This document shows, piece by piece, positions 10,329 to 14,972 of a stretch of 17,376 bases of DNA (within the stretch, counting starts at the first letter, position 1; every line of letters begins with the position of its first letter). Below the pieces are notes generated by a model that had not been told where the DNA came from, searched no databases, and saw nothing but the letters and a program-made list of their open reading frames with translations. The stretch lies in the IMG/VR virus record IMGVR_UViG_2541047431_000017; one strand, written 5' to 3'. Source of the stretch: a virus (lineage: Duplodnaviria > Heunggongvirae > Uroviricota > Caudoviricetes). The position numbers and the translations under genes were made by a program.

Positions 10329-10351
10329 AGCCACCGGAAGGTGGTTTTTTT
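10329..10351 (+). terminator. intrinsic terminator (tR'-like) in the late leader downstream of Q
   Basis: CCACC-ggaa-GGTGG hairpin followed by TTTTTTT. Confidence 0.55.
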
Positions 10352-10474: not shown

Positions 10475-10672
10475 ATGCTGAAACAGCAGGATATGACAGA
10501 AACCGCCAGAGTGGTGTTTAATGAATTAAGCGTTACCGACCCGGCGACAGTCGGGGAGATTGCGCAGAATACTTACCTTTCACGCGAACGCTGCCAGTTA
10601 ATACTGACCCAGCTGGTTATGGCGGGTCTGGCAGACTATCAGTTTGGTTGTTACAGACGCCTTCAGTCCTGA
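10475..10672 (+). CDS. small hypothetical protein (possible winged-helix DNA-binding fold)
   Basis: ATG at 10475 (MLKQQDMTETARVVFNELSVTDPATVGEIAQNTYLSRERCQLILTQLVMAGLADY...). The ORF-track GTG start at 10352 falls inside the upstream terminator and is unlikely. Confidence 0.4.
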   Translation: MLKQQDMTETARVVFNELSVTDPATVGEIAQNTYLSRERCQLILTQLVMAGLADYQFGCYRRLQS

Positions 10673-10686
10673 AGGCTTTTTTATTT
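10659..10686 (+). terminator. intrinsic terminator overlapping the stop of the small ORF
   Basis: GCCTTCA-gtcc-TGAAGGC hairpin followed by TTTTTTATTT. Confidence 0.5.
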
Positions 10687-10822
10687 GTGGTAAATGGGCG
10701 GCTGGTGGGTGTAAGGGGCACCCACCAGCCATCTGCTCATGCGTTGGGTTCACAAGCAAACCTCAGGCCCACTGCTTTGCGCAAAAGCAGAATGAGCCTA
10801 TCAGAGACAGGCTTAATGATCC

Positions 10823-11545
10823 ATGCTTAATACTGTAAAAATATCCAGTTGTGAGTTAATCAACGCCGACTGCCTGGAATTTATGCGGTCGTTACCCGAA
10901 AATTCTGTTGACCTGATAGTCACGGACCCGCCGTACTTCAAAGTGAAACCCGAGGGCTGGGATAACCAGTGGGCGGGTGATGAAGATTACCTGAAGTGGC
11001 TGGACCAGTGTCTTGCGCAGTTCTGGCGGGTGCTGAAACCTGCCGGAAGTCTTTACCTGTTCTGTGGCCATCGTCTGGCATCTGACACCGAAATCATGAT
11101 GCGTGAGCGGTTTAACGTGCTGAACCATATCATCTGGGCAAAGCCGTCCGGACGCTGGAACGGGTGCAACAAGGAAAGCCTGCGGGCGTATTTCCCCGCC
11201 ACAGAGCGCATTCTGTTCGCAGAGCATTATCAGGGGCCGTATCGTCCGAAAGATGCCGGGTATGAGGCGAAGGGTAGGACACTGAAACAGCATGTGATGG
11301 CCCCGCTGATTGCTTACTTTCGTGATGCGCGCGCTGTCCTGGGGATAACGGCAAAACAGATTGCAGATGCCACAGGAAAGAAAAACATGGTGTCGCACTG
11401 GTTCAGTGCCGGTCAGTGGCAGCTGCCGAACGAAAGCGATTATCTGAAATTACAGGCACTGTTTGCCCGGGTGGCAGAAGAGAAGCATCAGCGGGGTGAA
11501 CTGGAAAGCCCCACCACCAGCTGGTGGATACGTATGCCTCTCTGA
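10823..11545 (+). CDS. DNA methyltransferase (amino-MTase), N-terminal portion; gene apparently frameshifted
   Basis: DPPY catalytic motif (VDLIVTDPPYF). The frame ends at 11545 while the downstream ORF, in another frame, carries the AdoMet motif. Confidence 0.7.
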   Translation: MLNTVKISSCELINADCLEFMRSLPENSVDLIVTDPPYFKVKPEGWDNQWAGDEDYLKWLDQCLAQFWRVLKPAGSLYLFCGHRLASDTEIMMRERFNVLNHIIWAKPSGRWNGCNKESLRAYFPATERILFAEHYQGPYRPKDAGYEAKGRTLKQHVMAPLIAYFRDARAVLGITAKQIADATGKKNMVSHWFSAGQWQLPNESDYLKLQALFARVAEEKHQRGELESPTTSWWIRMPL

Positions 11546-11880
11546 ACCGACAGTATGCGGAGCTGCAGAGTGAATATAAGCATCTGCGGCGGTATTTCGG
11601 TGTGACGGTGCAGGTGCCGTACACCGATGTGTGGACGTATAAACCGGTGCAGTACTATCCAGGGAAACATCCGTGCGAAAAACCGGCAGAAATGTTGCAG
11701 CAGATAATCAGCGCAAGCAGTCGTCCGGGAGACCTGGTTGCAGATTTCTTCATGGGGTCGGGGTCGACAGTGAAAGCAGCGATGGCGCTGGGACGTCGTG
11801 CAACTGGCGTTGAACTGGAGACTGAACGTTTTGAGCAGACGGTGCGGGAAGTACAGGATTTAATCATTCGTAACGGATGA
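11524..11880 (+). CDS. DNA methyltransferase, C-terminal portion (AdoMet-binding FxGxG motif)
   Basis: Motif DFFMGSGST. This frame is open from 11500 and has only a GTG at 11524, so it reads as the continuation of the upstream ORF after a frame change between about 11500 and 11545. Confidence 0.7.
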   Translation: MDTYASLNRQYAELQSEYKHLRRYFGVTVQVPYTDVWTYKPVQYYPGKHPCEKPAEMLQQIISASSRPGDLVADFFMGSGSTVKAAMALGRRATGVELETERFEQTVREVQDLIIRNG

Positions 11881-11920: not shown

Positions 11921-11996
11921 GGCCCTTTAGCTCAGCGGTGAGAGCGAGCGACTCATAATCGCCAGGTCGCTGGTTCAAATCCAGCAAGGGCCACCA
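11921..11996 (+). tRNA. ileZ: tRNA-Ile2-like (anticodon CAU, ileX/ileZ type)
   Basis: Cloverleaf folded by hand: acceptor GGCCCTT/AAGGGCC, D-arm GCTC/GAGC, anticodon loop CTCATAA, T-arm GCTGG-TTCAAAT-CCAGC, encoded CCA. Close to E. coli ileX as I recall it. One A-C mismatch at the top of the anticodon stem. Confidence 0.8.
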
Positions 11997-11997
11997 A

Positions 11998-12063
11998 CCG
12001 CCACTAGCTCATCAGGAAAGAACGTCACCCTGTGCGAGATTCGGAGTCCCCGGTGGCGGTCCA
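11998..12063 (+). other. tRNA-like remnant (possible degenerate argN-type tRNA)
   Basis: Perfect 7-bp acceptor-like pairing (CCGCCAC / GTGGCGG) followed by T-CCA, but only 66 nt and the internal arms do not fold into a clean cloverleaf. Confidence 0.3.
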
Positions 12064-12076
12064 TTATCGGTATTCT

Positions 12077-12153
12077 GCGTTGTTAGCTCAGCCGGACAGA
12101 GCAATTGCCTTCTAAGCAATCGGTCACTGGTTCGAATCCAGTACAACGCACCA
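12077..12153 (+). tRNA. argO: tRNA-Arg (anticodon UCU)
   Basis: Acceptor GCGTTGT/ACAACGC, D-arm GCTC/GAGC, anticodon arm ATTGC-CTTCTAA-GCAAT, T-arm ACTGG-TTCGAAT-CCAGT, encoded CCA. Confidence 0.85.
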
Positions 12154-12471
12154 CACCACACTTATCTGCCCTGACTCTCTTTTGCGGGCTTTTTATTACA
12201 GGAAAGACACCGGACAGTGAAATGTTAAATGCCTCACAATTCAGGCAGTTGACTGTTGCCTGACATGCTGAGCGTTTGTTAAAAAAATCCTGCATGATGA
12301 ATCCCCCTGAGCGGCGGGGCATAATGACAGATGTTTGGTTGCGTATTGTATAGGCAAGTTGCGGATTCTGTCTGGTCATTGCAGAATTCACCGGGAGGCA
12401 CCCGGCATCATGCTGTATACAGAGATTAGGCATATATCCAGGCTTCTCATCGCAGGAGCCTTTTTACATGC

Positions 12472-12497
12472 AAAAAAAAGCCCGAGTGGGTTCGGGC
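12472..12497 (-). terminator. terminator-like hairpin oriented for the minus strand
   Basis: A8 run then GCCCGA-gtgggt-TCGGGC on the + strand, i.e. hairpin plus U-tract when read on the minus strand. Confidence 0.35.
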
Positions 12498-12557
12498 AAC
12501 AGCATGAGATACTTGCATTGTCATTTTTATCGTGTGGATTTTAACCAGGGTTTATAA

Positions 12558-12676: not shown

Positions 12677-14527
12677 ATGACATTTAAACATTATGATGTT
12701 GTCAGGGCGGCGTCGCCGTCAGACCTTGCGGAAAAGCTGACACACAAACTGAAAGAGGGCTGGCAGCCGTTTGGTAGTCCGGTGGCCATAACCCCTTATA
12801 CCCTGATGCAGGTGATTACAGCAGAAGGTGATGTGGTGGTCAGTGGTGCAACTGAGCCGGATTGGTACTACGTCATCGTACTGGCCGGGCAGTCCAATGC
12901 CATGGCTTACGGTGAAGGGCTTCCGCTGCCGGATTCATACGATGCTCCGGATCCGCGCATTAAACAGCTGGCGCGCCGCAGTACAGTGACGCCGGGTGGG
13001 GCTGCCTGCAGATATAACGATATTATTCCGGCCGACCACTGCCTGCATGATGTGCAGGATATGAGTACGCTGAATCATCCGAAGGCAGACCTGAGCAAAG
13101 GGCAGTACGGCTGTGTCGGCCAGGGGTTACATATTGCCAAAAAACTGCTCCCGTATATCCCGAATAACGCGGGGATCCTGCTGGTACCATGCTGTCGTGG
13201 TGGTTCGGCATTTACCCAGGGCGCGGAGGGGACATTCAGCGAGTCCACGGGGGCCAGCCAGGATTCGGCACGCTGGGGGGTGGGCAAACCGTTATATCAG
13301 GACCTGATTGCCCGCACCAAAGCTGCATTACAGAAGAACCCGAAAAATGTGTTGCTGGCGGTGTGCTGGATGCAGGGAGAGTTTGACATGAGCGCCGCCA
13401 CCCACGCACAGCAACCTGCGCTGTTTACAGCCATGCTGACACAGTTTCGTGCTGACCTCTCCGTGTTTAACGCGCAGTGCCATGGTGGCAGTGCTGCAGA
13501 TGTGCCGTGGATTTGTGGTGACACGACGTATTACTGGAAAAATACATACGCTACCCAGTACGACACCGTGTACGGCGGGTATAAAAACAGGGAGAGTGAG
13601 GGCGTTTATTTTGTGCCCTTCATGACAGACGGTAACGGCGTCAATACCGCCACTAACGCGCCGGCAGAAGATCCGGATATTCCGGCATCAGGATATTACG
13701 GTGCGGCATCGAGAACGAATGGAAACCAGGTATCATCAAACCGCCCGACACATTTCAGTTCATGGGCGCGCAGGAGCATTATTCCGGATCGTATGGCAAC
13801 CGCTATTCTGAACGCAGCCGGGCGCACCTCAGCCTTCATCAGTGGTAAGGCACCGGAAATCAAACCCTCGCCCGGCGGCAACACGCCATCGGGTCCGTCT
13901 GCAGATACGTCCGTTCGCACAATCTCCCTGCTGCCGGCAGCCGGAGAGGCTGCTGCGCAGGGCTGGAGCATTAAGGATGGCGGAATTCAGTTGTCAGATG
14001 GTGTATTTAAGATCACCAGGCAGAGCAATAAAACCTGGTCCCTGACGCATCCGGTGGATGACGCAATTACCCTGCTGACACAGGGCGGCAGACTGACCTG
14101 TAAGTTCCGCCTGTCAGGCGCACTGACCAACAATCAGTTCGGGCTGGGGATTTATCTGTATACGGATGCTCCCGTTCCTGATGGTGTGGCGATGACGGGT
14201 ACCGGTAATCCGTTCCTGATGTCGTACTTCACTCAGACCACTGACGGCAGAGTGAATCTGATGCATCACAGGAAAGCCGGAAACACGAAGCTGGGGGAGT
14301 TCGGCGATTACGGTAACGACTGGCAGACGCTGGAGCTGGTGTTCACCGCCGGCAGTGCCACGGTTACTCCGAAACTGAATGGAGTGGCTGGCCCGGCATT
14401 CCAGGTTATAAAAGACAGTCTGACACTGGGACTGAATGCGCTGACGCTGACGGATGTTACAAAAAATGCAGCGTATGGCGTTGAGATAGAAAGTCTGGTG
14501 CTGGAGATAAATGCACCGGCAGCATAA
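12677..14527 (+). CDS. prophage sialate O-acetylesterase, NanS-p-like (SGNH/SASA hydrolase with N-terminal DUF1737-type domain)
   Basis: ATG at 12677 with a GGGAGG SD (the ORF-track TTG start at 12620 is less likely). N-terminus MTFKHYDVVRAASPSDLAEKL... and the GQSNA catalytic motif. Occupies the position downstream of the tRNA cluster that Stx-phage nanS-p genes occupy. Confidence 0.75.
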   Translation: MTFKHYDVVRAASPSDLAEKLTHKLKEGWQPFGSPVAITPYTLMQVITAEGDVVVSGATEPDWYYVIVLAGQSNAMAYGEGLPLPDSYDAPDPRIKQLARRSTVTPGGAACRYNDIIPADHCLHDVQDMSTLNHPKADLSKGQYGCVGQGLHIAKKLLPYIPNNAGILLVPCCRGGSAFTQGAEGTFSESTGASQDSARWGVGKPLYQDLIARTKAALQKNPKNVLLAVCWMQGEFDMSAATHAQQPALFTAMLTQFRADLSVFNAQCHGGSAADVPWICGDTTYYWKNTYATQYDTVYGGYKNRESEGVYFVPFMTDGNGVNTATNAPAEDPDIPASGYYGAASRTNGNQVSSNRPTHFSSWARRSIIPDRMATAILNAAGRTSAFISGKAPEIKPSPGGNTPSGPSADTSVRTISLLPAAGEAAAQGWSIKDGGIQLSDGVFKITRQSNKTWSLTHPVDDAITLLTQGGRLTCKFRLSGALTNNQFGLGIYLYTDAPVPDGVAMTGTGNPFLMSYFTQTTDGRVNLMHHRKAGNTKLGEFGDYGNDWQTLELVFTAGSATVTPKLNGVAGPAFQVIKDSLTLGLNALTLTDVTKNAAYGVEIESLVLEINAPAA

Positions 14528-14800
14528 TAAAAAAAGCCAGCGACTGACCTGAAAGAAGACGCTGGCTAAAAGGCCTTATATGTTTGTAGAGACTTATTTT
14601 TCACAGACAGCAATGATGCCTGTCAATATATTATCAATATGCGGATTGTTTCAGTTACAGATGCTTTATTAAGGAAAAAAACAGCCAGCACTGACTTTCG
14701 GTGGAGAGGTGCTGGCTCAAAAGGATAGATGTACTTCACATGTTGCTTCTATATGGCAGTACATTTTCTGACAGACAGTGACGGATGTTGTCAAGATATT
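14527..14800. repeat. degenerate tandem duplication of a hairpin-containing unit of about 140 bp
   Basis: Two units each start with an A-run and a 7-9 bp GC-rich hairpin (14536-14566; 14661-14695) followed by aaaagg. Downstream parts align at about 70 percent (tcacagacagcaatgatgcctgtcaatatatt vs tctgacagacagtgacggatgttgtcaagatatt). Confidence 0.45.
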
Positions 14801-14891
14801 GTGTCATTTATAACCTGAATCGGGGGAGGCCGGAATGTTATCTGGCATTTTTAGCAGAGCCTGAATGCCATAATCACGGCTCCCGGCGTTG

Positions 14892-14928
14892 GCCGTCAGT
14901 GGGTGACACTGGCGGCTTTTTTGTTTTC
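14892..14928 (+). terminator. intrinsic terminator immediately upstream of the holin gene
   Basis: GCCGTCAGTG-ggtga-CACTGGCGGC (one mismatch) followed by TTTTTTGTTTT. Confidence 0.5.
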
Positions 14929-14972
14929 CTTTACTTTCATTTTCTGTCGGCGGTGACGGAGACATACACCAG

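Follow-up and report, generated by a model that had tools for sequence, protein, structure and literature searches.

A single-nucleotide deletion divides an M.EcoGI/M.EcoGII-family methyltransferase gene in a lambdoid prophage of Escherichia coli O157

Introduction

M.EcoGI and M.EcoGII are non-specific N6-adenine DNA/RNA methyltransferases from prophages of Escherichia coli O104:H4 C227-11 (Murray et al. 2018, PMC5778455). These near-twins are prophage-borne beta-class enzymes that methylate adenine in any sequence context. Neither is expressed in the lysogen, constitutive expression of M.EcoGII is deleterious and slows growth, and the role proposed for the pair is to shield phage DNA against restriction (PMC5778455). 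The same work named phage 1720a-02 as the carrier of a very similar methyltransferase (PMC5778455). In an AlphaFold-based model of M.EcoGII, the Rossmann catalytic domain is built from residues 1-134 and 260-349, and the target-recognition domain (TRD) occupies residues 160-237 (PMC11551740).

Here, we describe a gene of this kind that is spread over two reading frames. It lies in a 17,376-nt stretch of Caudoviricetes DNA, which we call the window.

Results

The methyltransferase gene occupies two overlapping frames

The gene is part of a lambdoid prophage, whose cI/cro-like, replication, RusA, DUF1133, tRNA, holin, lysozyme and Rz-like lysis genes flank it. The local gene order is RusA, DUF1133 protein, a small ORF, the methyltransferase, tRNA-Ile, tRNA-Arg, a NanS-p-like esterase, holin and lysozyme. 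The methyltransferase locus has the following features:

10823-11880, + strand: whole methyltransferase pseudogene, assigned by sequence to the M.EcoGI/GII-family beta-class N6-adenine methyltransferases; 1058 nt, against 1059 nt in the intact allele
10823-11545, + strand: ORF1, from ATG at 10823 to TGA at 11543-11545; 240 aa, with a Pfam match
11500-11880, + strand: second frame, -1 relative to ORF1, encoding the equivalent of residues 229-352; stop at 11878-11880
10925-10936, + strand: motif IV, DPPY, inside ORF1
11749-11763, + strand: motif I, FMGSG, in the second frame; DFFMGSGST spans 11743-11769
11505-11507, + strand: A3 run, the site of a 1-nt deletion by alignment with intact alleles, all of which have A4
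11509-11512, + strand: CCCC run, unchanged between frameshifted and intact alleles and not the lesion

ORF1 consists of enzyme residues 1-228, 12 out-of-frame residues (SPTTSWWIRMPL) and a stop, and it holds the motif IV DPPY together with the central TRD. The second frame follows a TGA at 11497-11499, and its first start codon is a GTG at 11524, corresponding to residue 234. Of the 221 profile positions of the Pfam family PF01555 (N6_N4_Mtase), ORF1 matches 1-106 (E 3.6e-17) and the second frame 119-220 (E 1e-24). Because the two frames take up complementary halves of one profile, their pairing is not due to chance. A working beta-class enzyme carries motif IV, (D/S)PP(Y/F), in its N-terminal part and FxGxG C-terminal to the TRD (the order IV-TRD-I), all on one uninterrupted polypeptide. 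The DPPY of ORF1 and the FMGSG of the second frame are placed in just this way; the polypeptide, however, is interrupted, as the deletion at 11505-11507 puts the two halves into different frames. The window gene is a pseudogene of the PF01555 family and not a working member of it.

An earlier note, made from the sequence without database searches, had placed DPPY and DFFMGSGST in different frames, and the sequence and its translation bear out those coordinates. The frame overlap at 11524-11545 and the CCCC run at 11509-11512 are likewise as the note described them. It had further read the second frame as open from 11500 with only the GTG at 11524 and no Shine-Dalgarno (SD) sequence, in line with an anti-SD pairing energy of -0.1 kcal/mol at that codon.

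One A is missing from a short A-run

We aligned the window with the identical locus of strain 2017C-4109, the 1059-nt locus of strain PV15-279 and the copy of an Stx2a phage. Inside the gene, a single difference sets the window and 2017C-4109 apart from PV15-279. Where PV15-279 and the Stx2 phage EH2201 carry the intact GGAAAAGCCCC, the window and 2017C-4109 carry GGAAAGCCCC; in longer context, the intact alleles read CTGGAAAAGCCCC and the window reads CTGGAAAGCCCC. The nucleotide alignment with intact relatives, which the earlier note had suggested, thus maps a 1-nt deletion from A4 to A3. The note’s single-base indel stands, but its site is the adjacent A-run rather than the CCCC run where the note had put it.

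The same note had predicted that one indel would fuse the frames into a protein of about 350 aa. Indeed, a single inserted A restores a continuous ORF of 352 codons, the product of which is identical to WP_000935548.1, a protein annotated as intact in strains PV15-279, 17B6-2 and CV261. In these strains the intact allele sits at the same prophage position between the same flanking genes; it differs from the window gene by the one extra A and forms a single 352-aa ORF. Since the window gene matches the intact allele at every position (100%) once the indel is set aside, the mutation is young. Taken as a whole, the locus very probably represents a recent loss-of-function frameshift, by loss of one A from A4, in a methyltransferase gene that an E. 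coli O157 prophage of the non-Stx lambdoid kind carries in its late region.

The repaired protein resembles M.EcoGII over its full length

M.EcoGII and the repaired or intact O157 protein are identical at 325 of 350 amino acids (~93%, full length), a count in which a few mismatches may be reading errors, as the M.EcoGII reference was machine-read from Supplementary Table S1 of PMC11551740. The two share the beta-class order of DPPY, TRD and FxGxG, and both are carried by lambdoid prophages. Unlike M.EcoGII, the window copy is frameshifted after codon 228; once repaired, it encodes 352 aa, compared with 349 aa in M.EcoGII. The gene of phage 1720a-02 is 93.5% identical to the window gene at the DNA level. 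By its sequence, the window gene belongs to the M.EcoGI/M.EcoGII family, whose non-specific activity is known from M.EcoGII.

The solved structures that the protein matches are beta-class amino-methyltransferases: 9c3u and 8urk (each named ‘Methyltransferase’), M.RsrI (1nw8/1eg2), CcrM (6pbd) and M1.MboII (1g60). Unlike the M.EcoGII family, these enzymes are sequence-specific. The matches fall into two stretches, N-terminal residues ~8-115 and C-terminal residues ~269-343, and no PDB sequence matches the central 150 residues, which comprise the TRD and its linkers. A family-specific insert within the catalytic domain would fit this pattern.

The break parts the catalytic half from the cofactor-binding half

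The numbering of M.EcoGII and of the O157 protein is collinear up to about residue 272, and the break lies at the end of the TRD, near the inter-domain linker. Of the enzyme, ORF1 therefore keeps the DPPY half and almost the whole TRD, and it lacks the AdoMet-binding half, which the second frame encodes. In the intact 352-aa enzyme, the DPPY half would be followed by a helix-bundle TRD and then by the FxGxG AdoMet-binding half. The frameshift takes effect after codon 228, and ORF1 translation then ends at 11545. Ribosomes that start at the ATG at 10823 would leave the correct frame at this codon and run into that stop, yielding a product devoid of the AdoMet-binding half of the Rossmann fold, and the downstream half would be left with no usable ribosome-binding site. 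Judging from the established architecture of the fold, neither fragment alone would be expected to bind the cofactor and catalyze transfer. Because the break separates the catalytic half and the TRD from the AdoMet-binding half, a loss of function is predicted, and the split enzyme is almost certainly inactive, as the earlier note had proposed.

An intact enzyme of this family would not be made in the lysogen, and its presumed task once the prophage is induced is to guard phage DNA against restriction; by analogy, the gene described here may have had such an anti-restriction role. In the O111 strains 95JB1 and 95NR1, each of which has two copies that match an 80-mer centered on the lesion with one difference, SMRT sequencing found no extra methylated motif attributable to M.EcoGI/GII homologues (PMC6602927). 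As intact homologues gave no detectable signal (PMC5778455, PMC6602927), methylation calling in an uninduced lysogen cannot separate the intact from the broken allele.

The frameshifted allele is a minority form in O157

A megablast search of 5,426 complete E. coli genomes found the window gene at 100% identity over all 1058 nt in 26 of them, and the next group of records is 99.9% identical over 1059 nt. With the 80-nt query centered on the lesion, the same number of genomes (26) carry A3, 327 show one difference, and 918 contain copies that are more divergent; from the 327, PV15-279 was confirmed as A4 by inspection, and 17B6-2 and CV261 as intact by their annotation. All 26 A3 carriers are O157-type strains where a serotype is stated. 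Their records span different submitters, countries and sources, with US, New Zealand, Japanese and Korean strain names. In a collection of 15 billion proteins, the exact 240-aa product of ORF1 occurs on 98 contigs and the exact 118-aa product of ORF2, the second frame, on 79, compared with at least 999 for the intact 352-aa protein.

The lesion is visible in existing annotation. PGAP labels the gene ‘DNA-methyltransferase, frameshifted’ in all three frameshifted records that we opened, and the ORF1 and ORF2 products have been deposited as separate ‘DNA methylase’ proteins under adjacent accession numbers. Short database entries of the methyltransferase are mostly labeled ‘partial’ and come from short contigs. 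Among phage genomes searched by megablast with the 1058-nt gene, the full-length 1059-nt matches are annotated as one ‘DNA methylase’ CDS. Matches to Stx2c phages that bear no annotated feature were considered as further pseudogenes and rejected: these records are almost unannotated, and the gene in them is an intact 352-aa ORF. The frameshift is already on record in public E. coli O157 annotations, as a routine and known pseudogene. The genomes that carry it have two to five places matching the methyltransferase gene, which indicates that other copies of the family probably remain.

The deletion occurs on two esterase haplotypes

We compared 2.8 kb upstream and 3 kb downstream of the gene in three frameshifted and three intact loci. 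The upstream 2.8 kb are identical in five of the six, whichever allele they carry, and no marker in them is linked to the lesion. Downstream, the esterase gene is mosaic, and A3 is found on two haplotypes, each of which also occurs with A4. The window’s esterase haplotype is common to CV261, and the two other frameshifted strains have a different one, common to 17B6-2; both CV261 and 17B6-2 have an intact methyltransferase. The exact 3.5-kb haplotype of the window, from the lesion into the esterase gene, was not found in the 5,426 complete genomes, the best match being 99.3%. Recombination in the esterase gene is a simpler explanation for A3 on two haplotypes than recurrence of the deletion.

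The mosaic gene itself, a NanS-p-like esterase (DUF6645 / SASA family in PGAP), lies at 12677-14527 and 14533-14968 of the window and varies between strains. Its mid-gene segment and 3' flank are those of CV261 and not those of the other frameshifted strains.

Alternative explanations of the split

The A3 state could be an error of sequencing or assembly in the window’s source genome, the true gene being intact. Single-base deletions in homopolymers are a common fault of long-read assemblies, and no genome in the complete-genome collection has the exact extended haplotype of the window. Yet the run is only three to four bases long, the same A3 allele is present in 26 complete genomes of varied origin, 98 contigs encode its exact product, and 327 genomes have a near-identical locus without the deletion. 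Since the A3 records come from different submitters, countries and sources, an assembly artefact shared by all of them in so short a run is very unlikely, and we consider this explanation exceedingly improbable. Equally improbable is a reversible ON/OFF switch like that of phase-variable mod genes, driven by slippage of the A-run. It would account for the coexistence of A3 and A4 in otherwise identical genes, and A3 beside two esterase haplotypes, each also seen with A4, is a pattern that could mean recurrence. Phase-variable mod genes, however, have long homopolymers or multi-copy repeats; the tract here is only A3 or A4, and known phase-variable genes slip appreciably only with tracts far longer than three to four bases. 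In addition, the allele state is fixed within assemblies, the 2.8 kb upstream are the same in five closely related strains regardless of allele, and recombination in the visibly mosaic esterase gene accounts for the haplotypes.

The remaining alternative is an enzyme that still works, as two pieces or by recoding. Both fragments might be made, by termination at 11545 and re-initiation at the GTG at 11524 or at 11602/11608, and assemble non-covalently; or tRNA-Pro might, at low frequency, slip by -1 in the P site on C_CCC (11509-11512) and yield a full-length protein with the change K229S. In either case a toxic methylase would be attenuated, and given that constitutive M.EcoGII is deleterious (PMC5778455), attenuation could in principle be tolerated or favored. 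Several features of the locus are compatible with such a scheme. Only residues 229-233 are absent between the in-frame part of ORF1 and a product started at GTG 11524, this codon and the ORF1 stop are 19 nt apart, and the break is at a domain boundary, near the inter-domain linker, where split enzymes can sometimes reassemble. Two further GTGs in this frame, at 11602 and 11608, pair moderately with the anti-SD (-6.3 and -6.1 kcal/mol). Because they mark the beginning of the C-terminal half of the Rossmann fold, a C-terminal fragment of some kind could be made, and the sequence permits CCC-to-CCC re-pairing in the -1 frame. Against this, the -0.1 kcal/mol at GTG 11524 compares with -7.1 to -11.2 kcal/mol for four neighboring genes. 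Inspection of 11500-11545 in the ORF1 frame found no X XXY YYZ slippery heptamer, and RNA from 11513 to 11612 folds no better than its shuffles (z -0.90; 40 of 200 shuffles fold as well), so that both hallmarks of programmed -1 frameshifting, a slippery heptamer and a downstream stimulatory structure, are missing. Chemically, a rare slip on C_CCC could occur, but there is no sign that anything stimulates it. M.AquI and M.EcoHK31I are natural two-subunit C5-cytosine methyltransferases, in which both ORFs are conserved and translated. The window gene resembles them in that its two ORFs divide in a variable region flanked by conserved motif blocks; unlike theirs, this arrangement is confined to a minority allele, whose second piece shows neither initiation signals nor conservation as a separate gene. 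The earlier note had held that a two-subunit form in related phages would speak against a split gene. We looked for it and found none: in the relatives examined (phages of 83-94% DNA identity and the intact O157 allele) the gene is always a single ORF, down to the Stx2c phage copy at 83% DNA identity, a 352-aa ORF in which the segment GELEKPHHQLV is conserved. Finally, a minority allele in one serogroup, free of other substitutions, bears no evolutionary signature of maintenance. We therefore regard a functional split or recoded enzyme as highly unlikely, and there is correspondingly little chance that the allele is attenuated rather than dead, with a rare C_CCC slip or a complementing C-terminal fragment providing a trickle of non-specific adenine methylation. 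The reading we prefer is that of a methyltransferase gene broken by a single deletion.

The prophage around the gene

From the position of the gene and the behavior of M.EcoGI/GII, the methyltransferase would be part of the late operon and expressed only after induction. A scan for promoter and terminator consensus sequences gave only weak, consensus-level sites. About 100 nt downstream of the DUF1133 gene, CCACCGGAAGGTGG is followed by TTTTTTT at 10331-10351, a site for which the consensus scan made no + strand report; it looks like the short-transcript terminator of lambda PR'-tR', which would place the methyltransferase in an antiterminated late operon. A perfect 12-bp inverted repeat, GGCTGGTGGGTG-TAAGGGG-CACCCACCAGCC, lies at 10700-10730, about 90 nt upstream of the methyltransferase start. 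No T-run follows it, and the six aligned strains all share it unchanged. A terminator-like hairpin immediately before it (10659-10676) does have a T-run.

Further features of the window are:

11921-11996: tRNA(CAT)
12077-12153: tRNA-Arg(TCT)
12263-12471, + strand: sRNA STnc100 (Rfam, 175 bits)
12473-12532, - strand: anti-GcvB sRNA AgvB (Rfam, 56.6 bits, just above the gathering score), abutting STnc100
~3683-4986: IS3-family element (IS1203/IS629) of 1.3 kb, with orfA at 3735-4061 and orfB at 4058-4948
6199-6957: paa adhesin gene

In Stx phages, stx2AB follows the tRNAs at the same relative position; in the window, STnc100 fills this slot. The 80-nt spacer between the two tRNAs (11997-12076) ends in the T-arm/acceptor-like GATTCGGAGTCCCCGGTGGCGGTCCA, and the Stx2 phage EH2201 has three tRNAs (Met/Ile, Arg, Arg) at the same place. 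The spacer, in which neither ARAGORN nor Rfam calls a tRNA, may be a decayed middle tRNA-Arg.

The IS1203/IS629 element, which has an Rfam ALIL frameshift pseudoknot at 4016-4132, sits where related strains have an uninterrupted DUF1627 gene, and this IS is also found in F3398, 17B6-2 and CV261, there at three other sites of the prophage. Downstream of paa is a hok/sok type I toxin-antitoxin module (7146-7295 and about 6979-7134), of which sok scores 103.9 bits in Rfam and hokD is annotated in relatives. Relatives are also annotated with a decayed fimbrial-protein pseudogene (‘frameshifted; internal stop’), which corresponds to about 5190-5725 of the window by offset from the related locus at 4391-4924.

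Discussion

The practical consequence concerns annotation. Pipelines that return two separate ‘DNA methylase’ proteins from this locus, as some GenBank records do, should treat the pair as one pseudogene. The A3/A4 indel could also mark a subset of strains, should the 26 carriers turn out to form a single clade. Were the improbable attenuated form real, a subset of O157 strains would make, in small doses, an enzyme whose full dose is toxic. Fragments that kept their activity, if they did, would be relevant to the design of split versions of M.EcoGII, a tool in wide use for chromatin footprinting.

For the biology of O157, the deletion means that a minority of strains carry a knockout of one of the several M.EcoGII-family copies found on O157 prophages. 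Such a methylase knockout is as expected of a decaying prophage, alongside the IS1203/IS629 insertion in the same prophage and the frameshifted fimbrial gene in its relatives.
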